DNA from: a virus
Length of the DNA stretch: 64,000 bases
IMG/VR virus record: IMGVR_UViG_3300037493_001906
Span: 32,001 to 96,000 of that record
Direction: 5' to 3' (one strand)
In this document: positions 31,251 to 64,000 of the stretch, piece by piece
Numbering within the stretch: position 1 is the stretch's first letter
Layout of the letters: the number at the start of each line of letters is the position of its first letter
Notes under the pieces: model-generated
What the model was told of the DNA's origin: nothing
What the model saw: the letters and a program-made list of their open reading frames with translations, nothing else
Databases searched by the model: none
Position numbers and translations under genes: made by a program

Positions 31251-32645
31251 TTAACAGTTATTACAAGAATTACAATCTGAACAACCTGACTCACAATTAT
31301 TAGGACAAACAGGTTTAATATAACCAGGTCTTACTGGTCTTTCATTAGTTAACTTTGGTGGTTTAGGTGTAGGAATACATTGCTCACATCCTGTTTGCGT
31401 TGAAGTATCTGTAAAAGATACAGCTACATCAAGTGTTGCAGGTTCACCCTCACAAAATGGATCATATAATACCTTATAGCATTTAGTACCAAATTTTAAT
31501 ATTACTGTAGTATTAGCATATTGAGTTAAATTTGGATCTATTACATAGTCAAAGTCTGTTGCATCTTCACAATTAACTAATAGAAAACATCCTCTACATT
31601 TACTACAATCACTTAAAGTGTTTACTACAATAACATTTGTTTTTGTACCAGTACAAGTTTCAGGAATAGATACTCTCCAACATACTGTACTTCCTTGTAT
31701 TGTTATAACCTTATTTATATAAGTAGATAAATTAACAAGTGTTAATAATGTATTTGAAGAATTTGAACAATCAGTTAGTTTATATGCACCAGTACATTCA
31801 CAGCATTCAACATATGATCTAAGTACTGCTACTTCTGTTGTTAATCCTGTACATGATTCTGCAAGTTGAACATGCCAACAATTAGGTGTATCTGGAGGAA
31901 AAAGAGGACCTACTATAACTATTACTTCATTTAAGTAAAGTGATAAATCAGTAATAACATCAAGAGTATACATTGGAAATTGACAATTTACTAATGTATA
32001 ACATGGTTGACAATTTCTTGTACAAATTTCACAATTATCATTAAAAGTAGCATCAAAAAAAGCAGTCTCCCAATCAAGATATACAATATCTGGATCATAT
32101 GTTACCTCATTAAGAACAAGGCATCCTGATGCTATTAGTTGTTCAGTATTATCATATACATTGGTAATTGCAACAGGAGAAACAAAAGTTGCAGGAGTTG
32201 GTCTAGTAGGATTACTAACTACACCATTATATTCAAAATAAAGTATATTGCCATCTTCATTTTTATATGGCTCATCTGTACAGCAATCTAAAAGATTAAA
32301 ATAGGCATGTATACAACTTCTACAATCTGGACAAGGTGGATACACAGGAAGTGGTGGTACTGGTTCTGGTAATGTATTAAGAGGAGGACCAGCTGCCATA
32401 CATAGACTACATAATCTATATTCAGCAAGTGCTGTATAAGAAACACTAGTAGTAATAGGTAATTCTGTAAGTTCAATTGTCCAACACTTTACATATGGAT
32501 CAATTCCATATATACAATATACATGTGGCCAAGGACCTGCAGGTAAATCAATAATTTGAATATAGGTAACAACAATAGGTGTTCCTCCTAAATCACACGC
32601 ACAGGGTGTTAATAATATTCTTGTACTTGGATCTGTTTCAGCCAT
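31251..32645 (-). CDS. Cys-rich repeat structural protein, 464 aa
   Basis: About 39 Cys by manual count; repeats of Y(T/K)LxxC...L(S/T)xYxNxV...C(W/Y)xV. Confidence 0.6.
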   Translation of the reverse strand: MAETDPSTRILLTPCACDLGGTPIVVTYIQIIDLPAGPWPHVYCIYGIDPYVKCWTIELTELPITTSVSYTALAEYRLCSLCMAAGPPLNTLPEPVPPLPVYPPCPDCRSCIHAYFNLLDCCTDEPYKNEDGNILYFEYNGVVSNPTRPTPATFVSPVAITNVYDNTEQLIASGCLVLNEVTYDPDIVYLDWETAFFDATFNDNCEICTRNCQPCYTLVNCQFPMYTLDVITDLSLYLNEVIVIVGPLFPPDTPNCWHVQLAESCTGLTTEVAVLRSYVECCECTGAYKLTDCSNSSNTLLTLVNLSTYINKVITIQGSTVCWRVSIPETCTGTKTNVIVVNTLSDCSKCRGCFLLVNCEDATDFDYVIDPNLTQYANTTVILKFGTKCYKVLYDPFCEGEPATLDVAVSFTDTSTQTGCEQCIPTPKPPKLTNERPVRPGYIKPVCPNNCESGCSDCNSCNNC

Positions 32646-57323: not shown

Positions 57324-59188
57324 TATTCTATAAATCTTATATCATACATTGAAGCTGTTGTAGTATCTCCTATATTTGCATTTTGAATAGCAAAAACAAA
57401 ATATTTGTCTGTTGTCCAATCAATGTTTAATGCAGAAGCAGCAACTACTCCATTAAGCATATCACTTGCAGCTGATGTTGAAGCAGGATACATTTCAGTA
57501 TTTGTGACAGTTTTAATAATTATCTCACGTGTCATCTGAGCAACTAGCGTACCTGCTGCTGTTGAGTTTGTAGCAATCAAAGTTGCTCCTGCTATAGCAG
57601 CAGAAGTATTTACATATATCCTCAAAGTTGTTATGCCAGCAGTTCCAACTTTCCTTGCTTTATATATTATTGAAACAATGTCACCAACAGCAAATGTTCC
57701 ACCAGTAATTAGTCTTGAATAAACTAATGTATTTGCTGTGCTTCCTGTTATAGCTGTAGCATTGTTTACTTCTCTATAAACCTTACCTGCTATCTTAGCA
57801 TTCCAAGTAGCAGCAGATGCTATTCTAGAATCAGCAAGAGTTCCTGTCCATCCTAATGTTAAGCTTACTGCTTGTAACAAAGATGTATTAGGAGTTCCAC
57901 CAAGAGTCAAAGTTACGTTTGTATCATTTGTTTTTGTTAAAGCAGAAGGACTAATACTAGGAAATATAGGAAAGGCTTGCCAAGTTTTATCACCCCTATA
58001 ATAATCAGTAATAGTTCCAGGTGCTACTGCTGGTTCTTTACTATTAAAGTTAGTCCAATCAGCAGATGATAATGCACCTCTATTAGTAGCAGATGCAGTA
58101 GGTATATTAAAGGTATGGGTACTAGTAGCTGAACTAATATTAAAATCAGTTCCAGAAGTTCCAGTAGCAAGTGTTTGAGTAACTGCAGTAAGTGCATTGA
58201 GTGAAGTAATACCTGATCCACCTATTTCTACCCAGGTTAAATTAGTAATACCTATAGTAATAGGAACTGTAGCAGGAGTTAAATGCCAAATAGAATTAGC
58301 AAGGGTACTTCCATAGATAATAGAAAGGGTAGCTTCAAGTAATAAACTAGGCGTGTTAGCATCTACAGTCCTTGTCAATATATAAGGAGTAAATGCATCT
58401 CCTACTTGAGTCAACTTATATATACCATTATTGGGAAGGTTGACACCAATCTCATCCTTAACAAGTACTCTTTCATTTAGTAATGCAGTATGGTTGTCTG
58501 TAGTAGCAGATGGTATAGCACCATTCACAGAACCAGTAAGAATCTGTCCACTTCCTGTAACTCCATAAGCTGGGAGTGCAGTAACAGTACCAACATGTGC
58601 TGCCTCTTTCCAATCTATACCATTAATAAGATTATCAATATACTGTTTAGTTGCAGCTTGTAGATTAGTTGTGGGATCTGCATTCAATATAAGATCCCCA
58701 GTCATAGTTCCTCCTGATAACTCAAGGTATCTTGCATCAAAAGTAGGATAACCATTAGCCCAAACAACAGAAGGATTAGGATATGTCCCTGATAAATCTC
58801 CCCCTGCTGGCCCAGCTGCACCACTAAATGTTCCTACAAAAGTCTCTGGCTCCCAACTTAATTCTGTAGTAGAAGTAGCTGATCCTAAAACCTGTATAAC
58901 AAAAGTACCTACAGGAACTATATCAGTAATACCTGCAGGGTTGGTAGGATCAGCATAATATTTATTACCTATTGTTAACCCACTAAGTTGATCATTAACA
59001 GCATCAAAATATACAGTGGCTGGAGCACCTGCTAAATAACTAAGCTTAACAAACCCCCCATAACAAGCATATGGATTAATTATCCCCTTAGTAAATACTA
59101 ACTCATTATAATTTGAGGGGTTCCTAATTAAAGTAACAAAATCTCCTGCTGTGAGATTAACATATGCATTAAATACCTGAGTAACCAT
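57323..59188 (-). CDS. Tail fibre/spike protein (likely start MVTQVF at 59188)
   Basis: ADPTTNLQAATKQYIDN and WKEAA...ERVLVKDE...NNGIY fibre motifs. The first 37 aa of the ORF-track call look like leader sequence. Confidence 0.75.
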   Translation of the reverse strand: MVTQVFNAYVNLTAGDFVTLIRNPSNYNELVFTKGIINPYACYGGFVKLSYLAGAPATVYFDAVNDQLSGLTIGNKYYADPTNPAGITDIVPVGTFVIQVLGSATSTTELSWEPETFVGTFSGAAGPAGGDLSGTYPNPSVVWANGYPTFDARYLELSGGTMTGDLILNADPTTNLQAATKQYIDNLINGIDWKEAAHVGTVTALPAYGVTGSGQILTGSVNGAIPSATTDNHTALLNERVLVKDEIGVNLPNNGIYKLTQVGDAFTPYILTRTVDANTPSLLLEATLSIIYGSTLANSIWHLTPATVPITIGITNLTWVEIGGSGITSLNALTAVTQTLATGTSGTDFNISSATSTHTFNIPTASATNRGALSSADWTNFNSKEPAVAPGTITDYYRGDKTWQAFPIFPSISPSALTKTNDTNVTLTLGGTPNTSLLQAVSLTLGWTGTLADSRIASAATWNAKIAGKVYREVNNATAITGSTANTLVYSRLITGGTFAVGDIVSIIYKARKVGTAGITTLRIYVNTSAAIAGATLIATNSTAAGTLVAQMTREIIIKTVTNTEMYPASTSAASDMLNGVVAASALNIDWTTDKYFVFAIQNANIGDTTTASMYDIRFIE

Positions 59189-59302
59189 ATCTCTAATATA
59201 CAAATTTCTACAACAATAACAAAGCTTGGGACACACTTTTAACCAGCATGGTATACTGGTACTTTTTATATAAGAGATAGAGTTAGGTGCTACTACCACA
59301 GA

Positions 59303-59337
59303 CCCCCCTCCCCTCTTTGGAAAACCCCCCTACCCCC
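59303..59337 (-). other. Four G-tracts (G5, G6, G4, G6 on the minus strand) at the late/early divergence point
   Basis: C-runs at 59303-08, 59310-13, 59325-30 and 59333-37 in otherwise AT-rich DNA. Confidence 0.6.
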
Positions 59338-59539
59338 TACCTTTAGCCACACCTGAAGTCAAATTAGCTAGGGCTAGACAAAAAGCATTCTTTCTAGAGA
59401 AACATCATAGTCATGATGACAAGACAGGAAGACAACAAGAAAAAACACTTCAACATCTAAACTTTTTAAAAAACACTTCTTCCATACACTAACTTATTTT
59501 GTATTATAATTTAGTAATACATTTAAAAACCTTATCATT

Positions 59540-59986
59540 ATGGCAACTAAATTCACAGCCAAAACCAAGTCCACAGCACGTGGCACGAAGTCTGTTAAAG
59601 AAACAGCTTCCAAATCTGTTAAGCCAACAGGTAATTATTTTATTGACGTAGAATACGTAAAGACCACCTATTATAAGGGGGGTTCTTTATTGCACTATGC
59701 TGTCACATCAAAACTTTTAGAAGAACAAATTACCCTGATTAAGAAACAAAGAGGGGAACATTATGCTGAAACAGCAAAAAAACAACCAATCATTACTTCA
59801 CCTATGAATGGGGGTTTAATCACACAGTTTGAATTTGATGCCAAGGACAAAAAGTTTTATGTCCGTGAAAATGCAAATGTCAAAATGTTTAACACCATCA
59901 ACAAGAAAGTCATTGAAGGTACTATGGCACCAACCATTGCTTCAATGATAATGCAACCATTGCTTGCTGATGCTATGTTGGGTTAA
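59540..59986 (+). CDS. First early-region protein, 148 aa, basic N-terminus
   Basis: ORF track; followed by a terminator. Confidence 0.7.
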   Translation: MATKFTAKTKSTARGTKSVKETASKSVKPTGNYFIDVEYVKTTYYKGGSLLHYAVTSKLLEEQITLIKKQRGEHYAETAKKQPIITSPMNGGLITQFEFDAKDKKFYVRENANVKMFNTINKKVIEGTMAPTIASMIMQPLLADAMLG

Positions 59987-59992
59987 CCAACC

Positions 59993-60036
59993 AAAGACAA
60001 GTCTAACCTTAACAGGTTAGGCTTGTCTTTTTTTTT
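59993..60036 (+). terminator. Rho-independent terminator
   Basis: 17-bp arms AAAGACAAGTCTAACCT / AGGTTAGGCTTGTCTTT plus a T-run. Confidence 0.85.
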
Positions 60037-60204
60037 GTTTTTTTAAAGGAACACTTCTTTCAAGCCAAGGGTACAGCACATTGTAATCAAAGACTTCTTA
60101 CTGTGTCTTGTTGCTTAATAGATAGACTCTCAAAATCCTCTCTCCTGTATTATCTTTGTGGTCTCATATATTATTATTATATTTACTCCTATATATATAG
60201 TACA

Positions 60205-60504
60205 ATGGATAAGTCTAAGAGAAACAGTTTAGCTGGAAAGAGCACAGGTAAATCTAAATCAGCTAAGTACTTTGCATCACACCCTGAAGCAAGAGCTAAG
60301 AAGAATGATTACAATAAAGTATATCATGCTAGTGATGAGCGTAAGAATTATAGAGAAGAACTTAATAAGGTTAATAGGCGGATTAAAGGCTATGGAGATA
60401 ATAAGGATTTAAGTCATACTAAGTCAGGTAAGTTGGTAGCAGAATCACGCAGCTCTAATAGAGCACGCAATGGTAGAGGCAACAATGCTAGATTAAAAAG
60501 TTAA
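60205..60504 (+). CDS. Basic protein with a degenerate HNH-like motif (likely start MDKSK, 99 aa)
   Basis: KDLSHTKSGKLVAESRSSNRARNG. Confidence 0.55.
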   Translation: MDKSKRNSLAGKSTGKSKSAKYFASHPEARAKKNDYNKVYHASDERKNYREELNKVNRRIKGYGDNKDLSHTKSGKLVAESRSSNRARNGRGNNARLKS

Positions 60505-60660
60505 CTACTTGATTATCAATACACTCTCAAATAATATATGCTCATAAATATAATAGCCTCATTATTAGATAGTTAGTATACTATTTGCATAGGCTGGATA
60601 ACACGTAACTCATTGATAATCAATAGCAGGTTTTTTATATAGGTTATAATGATGATAGTA

Positions 60661-60730
60661 ACACTCTTTTCATCCACACTTTTTTCATACACCCACTTTT
60701 AAAACACTCTTTTCATACACTCACTTTTCT
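60661..60730 (+). repeat. Degenerate tandem repeats of CACT(C/T)TTTCAT(A/C)CAC
   Basis: Three CACT...TTTCAT units interleaved with CAC(C/T)CACTTTT. Confidence 0.45.
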
Positions 60731-60806
60731 TGCACGGGTAGTTATCAGTGTCTATATGCAAAGCGTATATAGTAATTACTAATCAAATGCTAAAAACACA
60801 CAGCAA

Positions 60807-61283
60807 ATGAAAATCAAATCAACAATGGGTAATGGCGTAGGCTATACCAACAAGAATGGCAATGATGTATTTCCTTATGCCATAGTAAGTGCAACTCCTT
60901 CAGAGTTAGCGTTATACAAGAAGATTACACCAAAGGGAGTGTATAAGGAAACTGCAGAAGGACATCCCTTATTCTTTGCGTCAGAGTCTTACGGTGACAC
61001 TGCTACTTTGCAATTCAACTTTGCCAAGACTAATGTCTATTGTGTAGAGAAGGGTCAAAGAAAGGCAGTCATTAGTCAGATGAAGGCTTCAGGCATTGAT
61101 GTAAACAAGTCTGCTCAGGCAGTGTTGTCACAAATGTTTAGTGGCAAGGCATTTATGTCAGAAAGTACTGAGTCTGAGGCTACTGAAGAGTCTGAGACAA
61201 AGGTAGAGCCTAAAGCAATGGTAGTGGTTAAGAGAACTGCAACCAAAAAGGTTTCTGCCAAAGGGATTGGTAAGGTAATGTAA
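60807..61283 (+). CDS. Early hypothetical protein, 158 aa
   Basis: ORF track; followed by a hairpin. Confidence 0.7.
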   Translation: MKIKSTMGNGVGYTNKNGNDVFPYAIVSATPSELALYKKITPKGVYKETAEGHPLFFASESYGDTATLQFNFAKTNVYCVEKGQRKAVISQMKASGIDVNKSAQAVLSQMFSGKAFMSESTESEATEESETKVEPKAMVVVKRTATKKVSAKGIGKVM

Positions 61284-61295
61284 TCCCAAGCAATA

Positions 61296-61328
61296 TAACA
61301 AGGCTAATCTTCATAGGTTAGCCTTGTT
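61296..61328 (+). terminator. Terminator-like hairpin, paralogous to 59993-60036
   Basis: AACAAGGCTAATCT / AGGTTAGCCTTGTT. Confidence 0.7.
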
Positions 61329-61467
61329 TATGTTGTGACAAAAATTATTTTTACTGAAGACTTGAACTAAAAGTTTAAGTAACACGCTCTAACTAACTGA
61401 TAATGAGAGAGTTAGTTAGTGAGAAACAAACTCTCTCAAAAACAAACCAATTCAAAAAACCACTCAA

Positions 61468-61644
61468 ATGGCAGCAATAATAGATTTATTAGAAGAGTAT
61501 ATAGCTAATACTAACACAGTAATAGTTAAAACAGATATTAAAAGAGCTCATATAGATACTGAGCTTAGTCCTTATGATGTTAATGAGGACTTAGAGAAAG
61601 ACTATCCTGAACTATCTAGTAGTTTGTATTCTCTTAGTGTATAG
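61468..61644 (+). CDS. Acidic micro-protein, 58 aa (MAAIIDLLEEYIANTNT...)
   Basis: Translated by hand; ACTCAAATG start context. Confidence 0.55.
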   Translation: MAAIIDLLEEYIANTNTVIVKTDIKRAHIDTELSPYDVNEDLEKDYPELSSSLYSLSV

Positions 61645-61756
61645 AGGGTAGGAAGATAATAGTCACCAAGGCTTTGGTAAGAATAACCAAGGCCCTTATT
61701 TTAACTCTTTTATGTTCCTAACATAGAGTATAAAGAATGTTAAATACAAGGAGTGC

Positions 61757-61978
61757 ATGGTAGCTCAAACTCAAAAACTATTTATTATGCACAAATCATT
61801 TTTAATTCAAAGACTTTCTGATGGATTATTTTATAACCTTAATGGGCAATGGGATAAAAGAATTATAGGATTAACTTCTAGTTTTGTTTCTAAAGAAGAT
61901 GCATTATCCTATTTAGAAAACATTTATGAAATAAATCAAGACTATACAATAGTTGAAATTTATTATTCTTTTAAGTAA
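61757..61978 (+). CDS. Early hypothetical protein (may start at the internal MHKSF)
   Basis: ORF track. Confidence 0.55.
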   Translation: MVAQTQKLFIMHKSFLIQRLSDGLFYNLNGQWDKRIIGLTSSFVSKEDALSYLENIYEINQDYTIVEIYYSFK

Positions 61979-62310
61979 CAACTTTGAGTTCAGGGAAGAT
62001 AACTTCAAACCTGAACTTATTATCTAGAATTCTAGTTATTACTCACAGGTAAAACCTGTACAGATATACAGGCCCTATACTAGATAGGTTATACAATCTA
62101 ATATGTAACTTCAATTGACAACGGCCTCAGTACGTGGAGTTCCTTAAGTCCAGCCAAGGTGTAATCAGGAATGATTGCTAGGGTCAGACTCCACCAGTTA
62201 TTCTCAAACACTGCCACAAACTTAAACTTTATCATTACCTAATAAGAGAATAGGGATAAAGTTATTATATTTATAGAGTCTTGGGTTTCTTGATAGGGTT
62301 CCCAAGGCTC

Positions 62311-62493
62311 TATTCTCTTTGCACACTCATTAGTGAGCAGTTGTAATATGGGTAGTAGCAATGTGTCTACGTAATAGAACCTGTAACTTGCATAATAGCT
62401 CTACACTTCACTTTAGAGATTTAGGTAATCCATTAATTGGAATCCTGAAGTGTGTATCTATCAAGTAGTATTACAATTGAGTGCAGAGGGGTA
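62311..62493 (+). ncRNA. Putative structured RNA motif, copy 1
   Basis: ATTCTC..GTGAGCAGTTGTAATA (62333-48) pairs with TATTACAATTG, followed by AGTGCAGAGGG (62469-90). Confidence 0.55.
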
Positions 62494-62742
62494 GTCCAAA
62501 TTTAACTGATTATTAGACTTTAAATATTAGAATCAGTCCTTGAGAGTGGTGGTTTGTAGAAATACAATAAACTCTTATTTAATGCACCACAACTCACGTG
62601 GATATAAAGACTTCTTATAAAATATCGTACAGTTTGAATCTGTAGATTGGGCCCAACGCAGGGATTTAAGATGTGAAACCACAATGATTAAGAAACAGAA
62701 ACAATACAAGTAATTCTTGTTGGACACACAGAAACATTTAAT

Positions 62743-62857
62743 CATTCTCCCAAGGGTGAGCAGTTGTAATAACTACAGAGCCACTGTATCATGAAAACCT
62801 TTTATTTAGGGATACAACCTACTGACAATAGATTATTACAACTGAGTGCAGAGGGTA
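62743..62857 (+). ncRNA. Putative structured RNA motif, copy 2
   Basis: ATTCTC..GTGAGCAGTTGTAATA (62756-71) pairs with TATTACAACTG, followed by AGTGCAGAGGG (62834-55). Confidence 0.55.
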
Positions 62858-62927
62858 TTTAATTATTAAGCTCATAAAGATTGTATTTAAACTTATAATA
62901 AATTAAACAATTTAAAACCAACTCAAA

Positions 62928-63059
62928 ATGGAAACACTCACTGTATTATTAGTAGCCACACTATGTACCATTGGTATGTTTGCTCTGGCAATAGGACTTG
63001 TAACATTAGCAATCAAGTTAGACACTTTTATTTATAACTACTTAAACAACTCAAAATGA
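62928..63059 (+). CDS. Single-TM micro-protein, 43 aa (METLTVLLVATLCTIGMFALAIGLV...)
   Basis: Translated by hand; ATGA overlap with the next gene. Confidence 0.65.
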   Translation: METLTVLLVATLCTIGMFALAIGLVTLAIKLDTFIYNYLNNSK

Positions 63060-63280
63060 AATCAACTCTTATTATGCTATCCTTTATTGGTAGTTTCCTA
63101 GCAACTTGGTTGATACTAGGATTTATAGTTTATATGGTATCATATATAGACTATGTAGAATGTCTACGTCATACAGGTGTATTACTAGCAATGTTCTTTG
63201 TTGGTTGGGTACCTGCCATATTTGTAGCATATGATGTAGAAGAACTATTGAAGAATAAACAATCTCAATCTAATGGGTAA
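63056..63280 (+). CDS. Two-TM membrane protein, 74 aa
   Basis: Two hydrophobic helices. Confidence 0.7.
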   Translation: MKSTLIMLSFIGSFLATWLILGFIVYMVSYIDYVECLRHTGVLLAMFFVGWVPAIFVAYDVEELLKNKQSQSNG

Positions 63281-63392
63281 GTATAGCAAACAAGATGTAA
63301 AGAACTTTGGTAAATCCAAGGTTCTTTATACACCCAAGAAAGAGTATAATTATTCAGAGATGCCCTCTATTAGAAAGGCACTAAGTAAATAA
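63273..63392 (+). CDS. Basic micro-protein, 39 aa (MGKYSKQDVKNFGKSK...)
   Basis: Translated by hand; overlaps the previous stop. Confidence 0.55.
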   Translation: MGKYSKQDVKNFGKSKVLYTPKKEYNYSEMPSIRKALSK

Positions 63393-63562
63393 ATTAAGGA
63401 CATAATCAGAAATGATTGTGTCCTTTAATAATATTTTATTTTAATCCATCAAATAAATTAAGCACACGCTCTCTAAATTCTCTCATTCTTTAAAGTTTAT
63501 TACTCTTTAAAGTTTACTATCATCATAATCCTTAAATCAATTAATCCTAAAAACACACACAA

Positions 63563-63832
63563 ATGCAAATCTTTATTCTTATTGCTATGTCTGCTTATAT
63601 AAGTATGACAACCACTCTTATTGTCAAAGACATGGAGAAACCTATGACCAAAACAGTTTACCTTAAAGGTACAATTAAATCTGATGAAGAGTTTATGGAT
63701 GTACAAGAGTACCATGAATCAGATGACCTAGTTAAATCTACAAAAGATAGCCTTATTTATGTTAATAAGACCTCTCCTGATGCAGATACCCTTTACTTAT
63801 ACTCAATTTCTAACTTAAAAAACATTAAATAA
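63563..63832 (+). CDS. Protein with an N-terminal hydrophobic anchor, 89 aa
   Basis: MQIFILIAMSAYISMTTTLIV. Confidence 0.6.
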   Translation: MQIFILIAMSAYISMTTTLIVKDMEKPMTKTVYLKGTIKSDEEFMDVQEYHESDDLVKSTKDSLIYVNKTSPDADTLYLYSISNLKNIK

Positions 63833-63833
63833 A

Positions 63834-64000
63834 ATGAAAAAACTACTATTAATTAGTGTTATTGCTATAGCGGCAATGCAAGTAAATGCTCAAGATTCCA
63901 CCAAAGTTGTCATTAACAAAGATTCAGTTTATGTTATACAAAACATAGATGAATTAGCCAATAAGACTATGTATTGGGCGAATAAATTACTTGTCATAAC
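63834..64000 (+). CDS. Secreted protein (partial) with a Sec signal peptide
   Basis: MKKLLLISVIAIAAMQVNA-QDST; runs off the right edge. Confidence 0.65.
   Translation, partial: MKKLLLISVIAIAAMQVNAQDSTKVVINKDSVYVIQNIDELANKTMYWANKLLVI

Follow-up and report, generated by a model that had tools for sequence, protein, structure and literature searches.

The window analysed here, a stretch of 64,000 nucleotides of viral DNA (positions 32,001 to 96,000 of IMG/VR record IMGVR_UViG_3300037493_001906), carries two copies of a structured RNA motif whose family is probably an uncatalogued, phage-specific branch of the type-P1 twister ribozymes, without P3 and with a P5 arm of any length. The second copy would be a twister variant whose self-cleavage cuts the rightward transcript, and the first a non-cutting derivative of it, a reading of the sequence to which a probability of about 0.7 is given. 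A preliminary description of this DNA had proposed a structured, ribozyme-like RNA on the plus strand with a variable inner domain, situated among small genes of early type, and to that extent the analysis bears it out.

The repetition of the motif within the window is far beyond chance. The 16-mer GTGAGCAGTTGTAATA occurs exactly twice, at 62333-62348 and 62756-62771, and the 22-mer TATTACAAYTGAGTGCAGAGGG also has two occurrences (62469-62490 and 62834-62855), a kind of match that was found 0 times in 100 shuffles; ATTCTC is present at 62312 and 62744. It had been claimed that two copies share conserved blocks in gene-free DNA, and the region from 61979 to 62927 is indeed without an ORF of note. 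The inserts enclosed by the blocks are 120 nt long in copy 1 and 62 nt in copy 2, and each folds into its own hairpins as had been described, with ACACTTCA/TGAAGTGT at 62403/62446 in copy 1 and TGTATC/GATACA at 62785/62811 in copy 2.

The search for homologues and covariation that had been recommended gave a positive answer on both counts, with more than 250 copies of the motif in environmental crAss-like phage contigs and with helices and a pseudoknot that covary. Each of the two exact words is present in at least 120 IMG/VR viral contigs, many of them 100-127 kb in length. The crAss-type (major) capsid is encoded by 5/5 of the large carrier contigs tested and also by this 118-kb virus, and a near-complete genome holds one or two units. 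From the fetched loci 154 distinct units were parsed; type 1 is the commonest form, type 2 is expanded in L4 and type 3 is free of the pseudoknot. Every unit in a given locus lies on the same strand, nearly all gene clusters that recur nearby, most of them small ORFs without annotation, share the strand of the units, and only one of the 154 units overlaps a long ORF. A covariance model, R1, built solely from 38 copies of other phages with the window left out, matched copy 2 at 62727-62867 (51.6 bits, E 1.8e-11) and copy 1 at 62307-62502 (41.9 bits, E 7.6e-9). The family is restricted to phages. Bacterial and archaeal genomes gave 42 pattern matches against ~69 expected by chance and the full unit was found in only two of these, each time on a MAG contig (4.6 and 86 kb) and probably in phage DNA that was misbinned, so that the data indicate no host. 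In GenBank phages blastn found no counterpart at a threshold as loose as E<=1, and a literature search on twisters in Crassvirales found nothing specific.

Type 1 extends the motif as it was noted earlier on the 5' side. It starts with an AU-rich P1 followed by U|AA, continues with UGCA(C), which pairs with (G)UGCA to form P2, and a junction of 4-5 nt, and is followed by P4 (CUCAC/GUGAG), which closes the loop UUCCCAAGG (L4), by P5 (CAGUUGUAAUA/UAUUACAACUG) around 19 to about 180 variable nt, and by a 3' end that reads A, then GUGCA, GA and GGG. The P5 stem had been correctly recognised in the preliminary description as CAGUUGUAAUA paired with UAUUACAAYUG, and it covaries across the family. 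GUGAG and GUGCA, which had been regarded as conserved unpaired junction bases, turned out to be helix strands, the 3' strands of P4 and P2 respectively.

Covariation supports a three-way junction with a pseudoknot in the family. Among 38 type-1 copies from other phages P4 is 100% paired, with compensatory change at 5/5 pairs, and P2 is 100% paired with compensatory change at 1/5 pairs. The pseudoknot T1, in which the CCC of L4 pairs with the 3' GGG, is 98% paired and has the variants CCA/UGG and CAC/GUG; P1 is 65% paired, with many pair types and double changes at 5/5 pairs. All five summary measures on these 38 copies exceeded 500/500 shuffles and every slid control. Further compensatory variants (CCU/AGG, UGUAC/GUACA and UGCAU/AUGCA) came from a parse of 85 type-1 units, of which 83 have UAA and two CAA at the place of the scissile N-A step of twister loop L1 and of the further A that precedes P2. 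Over these parses CCA/UGG was seen 6 times, and P2 also occurs as UGUA/UACA and CACA/UGUG. The GA 3' of P2, which in twister stands for the catalytic G and the sheared A-G pair, is nearly invariant across units, and the junction-proximal letters GAG-CAG...CUG-A-GUGCA are almost so. The loci had first been fetched with words from P5, and a second sample was drawn with a pattern that lies outside this stem. Among 100 unique resampled units CAGUUGUA was present in 70 and the 3' AGUGCAGAGGG in 97, and the remaining P5 stems covary, e.g. CAGAUGUA/UACAUCUG and CACUUGUA/UACAAGUG. It is thus clear from the second sample that P5 is a true helix and that its apparent invariance is partly a sampling effect.

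According to reviews (PMC5408937, PMC6154101) of the twister class that Roth et al. described in 2014, the stems P1, P2 and P4 are essential and P0, P3 and P5 optional, T1 joins L4 with L1, T2 joins L4 with a conserved GC of L2, and cleavage takes place 5' of a conserved A. A short junction takes the place of P3 in about 20% of twisters and P5 occurs in 1% (PMC6154101), and P1 is dispensable for cleavage (PMC5408937). Both the order of elements and the conserved letters of the phage motif match the consensus line of RF03160 and these published definitions (PMC5408937, PMC6154101), which argues for a twister of type P1. The succession P1, U|AA, P2 (UGCA), L2, P4, L4 (U-CCC-AA-GG), P2', GA-GGG and P1' is common to both, with the P5 arm of the family, an optional stem in twister, inserted between L4 and P2'. 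As in twister, T1 lies between the CCC of L4 and the 3' GGG, here backed by covariation, L2 and L4 could form a T2 of two bases, and P3 is replaced by a short junction as it is in ~20% of twisters. The earlier proposal of an undescribed ncRNA class is contradicted by this agreement of element order, core letters, pseudoknot T1 and a possible T2 with the twister ribozyme, and also by Rfam-detectable twisters with the same P1/P2 shell, which adjoin family members in related phages.

The departures from twister are nevertheless several. The T2 letters of L2 and L4 are CC/GG in place of the conserved GC/GC, a flip of one pair by which complementarity is kept, and L4 has one additional U on its 5' side. 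P5 is always present, with 19 to about 180 nt, as against 1% of known twisters (PMC6154101), one subgroup of the family has a two-arm insertion of 70-260 nt in L4, and the 'UAAA' that precedes P2' in twister is replaced by P5 plus AG. The T2 candidates, CC in L2 and GG in L4, are complementary and nearly invariant, without covariation inside the family, their G-C pair being turned to C-G in comparison with the canonical neighbours, and four type-2 units have an uncompensated GA in place of GG. In P2 a fifth position, C, covaries with the G that precedes UGCA (U/A in L190, L140 and L154), which suggests a P2 of 5 bp that would compete with T2.

The Rfam twister models matched no family member at E<=10, be it in the window, in 15 loci with type-1 units, in a short-P5 unit or in a 59-nt minimal unit, the search space for the minimal units being 141-151 nt. 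The same was true of Rfam as a whole: cmscan at E<=10, applied to window positions 59000-64000, the 15 related loci, two minimal units and the remainder of the genome, assigned the motif to no family, so the Rfam check that had been advised was negative at any threshold. The only matches of these searches were to a canonical twister nearby, to tRNAs and to one tRNA look-alike. The twister (L068:855-923) scored 48.5 bits (E 9.5e-8), short of the gathering score of RF03160 (67.2 bits), and sits 140 nt upstream of a type-1 unit; it has the family shell UUAAUGCA...UGCAGAUGG, and it is through the shell that model R1 matches it. Three more canonical-looking twisters are found in related contigs (L216:7393-7450, L242:13616-13667 and, on the minus strand, L161). 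All four are 51-61 nt long and share with the family the outer shell UUAAUGCA...UGCAGA(G/U)GG (UGCAGAKGG), the T1 variants CCA/UGG and CAC/GUG and the kind of contig in which they occur, but differ from it in their P3 hairpin, in the GC(C) of L2, in an L4 that ends in GC and in the absence of P5. Minimal variants of the family, 59-66 nt in length and with other P4 and P5 sequences, resemble ordinary small ribozymes.

Other ribozyme classes were also compared. Twister-sister (RF02681) is like the family in its multi-stem junction, L4-like loop and phage association, but it is free of pseudoknots and its cut falls on the other strand of the P1/P2 loop (PMC5408937, PMC6154101), whereas in the family T1 covaries and YAA is on the twister side; Rfam gave no match of the motif to RF02681. 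Hatchet and other small ribozymes are likewise found in intergenic phage DNA, Crassvirales included (a remark in bioRxiv 10.64898/2026.03.07.710320; PMC6765202), but their folds are unrelated to that of the family and have no Rfam match in the window. HDV-like, hammerhead, pistol and hatchet topologies were dropped by eye, the helix order being unfitting and Rfam without matches.

Copy 2 (~62575-62860) is in all likelihood a complete family member, in which every twister core position is present and L4 carries a conserved two-arm insertion. The block aligned in the preliminary description (62744-62857) is real, but it lacks the 5' strands of P2 and P4; this 5' half, ~150 nt upstream at 62580-62597 (UAAUGCACCACAACUCAC), had been missed. 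It comprises, on the plus strand as are all features described here, the UAA of the predicted scissile step (62580-82), which is absent from copy 1, the 5' UGCA of P2 (62583-86), the CC of L2 (62587-88), the junction ACAA and the 5' CUCAC of P4 (62593-97). There follows the conserved insertion of 150 nt, which ends just before UCCCAAGG at 62748. Its arm a (62598-62682) has the stem GUGG/CCAC, an internal loop AUAUAAAG/GAAA, an inner stem formed by ACUUCUUA (62610-17) and UAAGAUGU (62667-74), and a variable arm of 49 nt; arm c (62683-62746) consists of a 9-bp stem, AAUGAUUAA/UUAAUCAUU, with a variable arm of 46 nt. The L4 core UCCCAAGG at 62748-55, which holds the U-CCC-AA feature, and the 3' GUGAG of P4 together occupy 62748-62760, with CCC 62749-51 as the strand for T1 and GG 62754-55 as that for T2. 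P5 (62761-62844) has an 11-bp base around a 62-nt variable arm and is the third arm, after a and c, that copy 2 carries beyond the core. The 3' core (62845-62855) reads AG, the 3' UGCA of P2 (62847-50), GA (62851-52) and GGG (62853-55), the T1 partner of CCC 62749-51. P1 has only about 2 bp. P2, P4, arm c and P5 all appear in the MFE fold of 62574-62862, which pairs the 5' half with 62756-60 and 62846-50.

The wide separation of the two halves is characteristic of the subgroup, the 5' half lying 93-290 nt upstream in nearly all type-2 units, and the distant halves covary in relatives (CACAC/GUGUG in L003 and L138, CUCAU/AUGAG in L110 and L031). The L4 insertion has one shared architecture across 27 units, with compensatory changes. 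Its outer stem GUGG/CCAC varies as GUAG/CUAC and GCAG/CUGC, the internal loop AUAUAAAG/GAAA is followed by ACUUCUUA/UAAGAUGU with a variable arm, and the second stem, CUGAUUAA/UUAAUCAG, shows many compensatory variants and bears a second variable arm.

In the proposed mechanism copy 2 would be transcribed along with the rightward small genes and would fold into a double-pseudoknot twister core, with C62749-51 paired to G62853-55 in T1 and C62587-88 to G62754-55 in T2. With all the twister core positions present the cut is predicted between U62580 and A62581. Self-cleavage at this step would leave a 2',3'-cyclic phosphate on the upstream product, and the downstream product, with a 5'-OH end, would carry the folded ribozyme as its leader, which would be followed after about 70 nt by the ORF at 62928. 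Copy 1 would then be a non-cutting derivative of the same RNA.

Copy 1 (62314-62491) most probably cannot cut by the twister mechanism and would be at most a stable folded RNA. It is enclosed by a closing helix of 11 bp, three of them G-U, between UCUCUUUGCAC at 62314-62324 and GUGCAGAGGGG at 62481-62491, and this helix is recovered in the MFE fold (z = -3.0). The P4 hairpin CUCA-UUAG-UGAG (62326-62337) has UUAG in the loop where copy 2 has U-CCC-AA, and as this loop is without CCC, T1 is impossible. P5 (62338-62479) has an 11-bp base (62338-48/62469-79) and a 120-nt variable arm. Since a continuous 11-bp helix replaces the UAA loop and the L4 pseudoknot strand, copy 1 would be unable to cut as a twister does. 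The P2/P4/P5 junction and the 3' letters are kept, with GAGGG locked in the closing helix. The pairing of AUUCUC with GAGGG that had been proposed for both copies is therefore real in copy 1, as part of the 11-bp helix, but does not stand for copy 2, in which GGG pairs with the CCC of UCCCAAGG in the covarying T1. A spacer at 62492-62579 separates the copies, and the region that includes it, 62469-62580, has 91% identity to two related contigs. For the TTTGCAC of copy 1 a Bacteroidota-type promoter was considered and rejected, as the motif is inconsistent across type-3 units and the same bases covary as a helix; a sigma-70 scan found fewer sites than in shuffles.

The persistence of the conserved core in copy 1-like units that are without the catalytic parts is the basis of the only rival explanation with real support. 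The family would, on this account, be mainly a non-catalytic scaffold, its P2/P4/P5 junction being bound by a protein of phage or host, or simply nuclease-resistant and displaying or protecting the variable arms, and the letters that resemble twister would be inherited or accessory. This is considered unlikely, though it deserves more weight than the other alternatives. Type-3 units keep the junction and the 3' letters without UAA and the CCC of L4, and their closing helix is partly compensated: 126/189 cells are paired against 115 +/- 5 in shuffles, 22/1000 of which were as high, with compensation as in CCCCAGUGCAC/GUGCAUUGGGG and UUUCUUUGCAC/GUGCAGAGAAA; covariation support for this helix is modest. 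The near-invariance of the letters around the junction points in the same direction. Most copies, however, keep all the twister core letters, a covarying T1 and a complementary T2, which would be needless for a mere scaffold.

The variable arms bear on the scaffold from both sides. P5 arms that recur with 93-100% identity are distributed over units of all three types, which speaks for it, but 112 of the 149 arms are singletons, as is expected of an unconstrained optional stem. Near-identical arms are combined with different 5' halves in L023/L031/L062, L174/L146 and L111/L115/L124; the occurrence of the same arm in units of differing 5' type indicates that the 5' half is exchanged on short evolutionary time scales, probably via recombination within the conserved blocks. 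T-arm-like hairpins are present in some arms, and no evidence for an independent function of the arms was found.

A possible protein partner is likewise seen in part of the family. In L205 (3212-4597) and seven other loci a 461-aa protein is encoded ~1 kb downstream of twister-type units and matches phrog_850 'RNA-binding protein' (E 1.5e-140) and Pfam DUF2828 plus DUF7788, a protein family that we take to be Ro/TROVE-like. Such an RNA-binding neighbour would fit a scaffold, but there is no constant protein partner among the fetched loci, the Ro-like gene being found in only eight of them, and the phrog_850/DUF2828 gene is absent from the genome of this window. A related and equally doubtful idea is that the twister-derived P2/P4/P5 junction has a second job, independent of catalysis, in presenting or stabilising variable RNA arms; it is drawn from the maintenance of pseudoknot-free copies with a compensated closing helix and from the movement of arms between cutting and non-cutting versions. 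If it were true the arms could partner the tRNA look-alikes and Ro-like proteins of these phages, and self-cleavage would be one route of release.

Far less probable than a scaffold is a switch controlled by a ligand or protein (a riboswitch or allosteric ribozyme), in which the 3' GGG would alternate between the CCC of L4 in an active state and an upstream pyrimidine run in an inactive helix. GAGGG does have two mutually exclusive partners in the family, the CCC of L4 in types 1 and 2 and an upstream UCUC or CCC in type 3, and unit L201 carries both. Almost all units nevertheless hold one partner only, which ties each copy to one state instead of letting a single RNA change over, and neither a conserved pocket beyond the twister core nor metabolic gene neighbours were seen. 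Least probable of all is a DNA-level element, with inverted-repeat sites for recombination or protein binding (attC- or MITE-like) around exchangeable inserts: the inserts between the conserved flanks are unrelated, and the same insert with different 5' halves suggests recombination in these blocks, but the G-U pairs that occur within the helices would be A-C mismatches on the other strand, the pseudoknot covaries, the units are co-oriented with nearly all recurrent gene clusters, the inserts are too short for genes, and any recombination is more plausibly a by-product of RNA genes that are conserved. The G-U pairs, the single strand per locus, the agreement in strand with the genes and the 1/154 overlap with ORFs argue for RNA rather than DNA, and the inverted-repeat or MITE reading was rejected on the G-U pairs, pseudoknot and strand bias.

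If the family is a branch of twister, as preferred here, a large phage-only subfamily has been missed by the standard catalogue, and annotation pipelines for phages that rely on Rfam leave such regions blank. The subfamily would show how much twister tolerates, with a flipped T2 pair, loss of P3, P5 arms of up to ~180 nt and an L4 insertion of 70-260 nt. The chemistry of twisters is well understood, their biological role still open (PMC6765202), and naturally occurring derivatives that do not cut, placed with cutting units in one intergenic region, would offer a ready comparison for the role of transcript cleavage. In the window itself the L4-expanded and the pseudoknot-free form are neighbours, and arms are shared across types in the family.

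Several minor features were observed in the surroundings. At 61627-61650 and 61670-61694 UAUUCUCUU...AGAGGGU form a short hairpin with the letters of the copy 1 closing helix and no interior, as if a unit had collapsed, and the region's sole terminator-like hairpin comes after it. With ARAGORN neither the window nor the sequence downstream yielded a tRNA. About 490 nt past the window end a tRNA look-alike (L207:3488-3551, genome 96488-96551; Rfam tRNA 36.5 bits) has good acceptor, D and T arms and an almost deleted anticodon arm, without an ARAGORN call, and in a related phage contig an Rfam tRNA match of 40.1 bits (L071:4783-4891) has about 48 nt inserted in the anticodon-arm region. A GC-richer, structured-looking stretch at 62115-62261 has 91% identity over 149 nt to L112:11567-11712, the sole other contig found. 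A second conserved non-coding block of ~80 nt lies at 62016-62098 and has 77-84% identity with at least eight other phage loci. RNAalifold gives it three hairpins, with a few compensatory pairs in the middle one, and it has no Rfam match; in L055 its counterpart comes directly after a twister-type unit.
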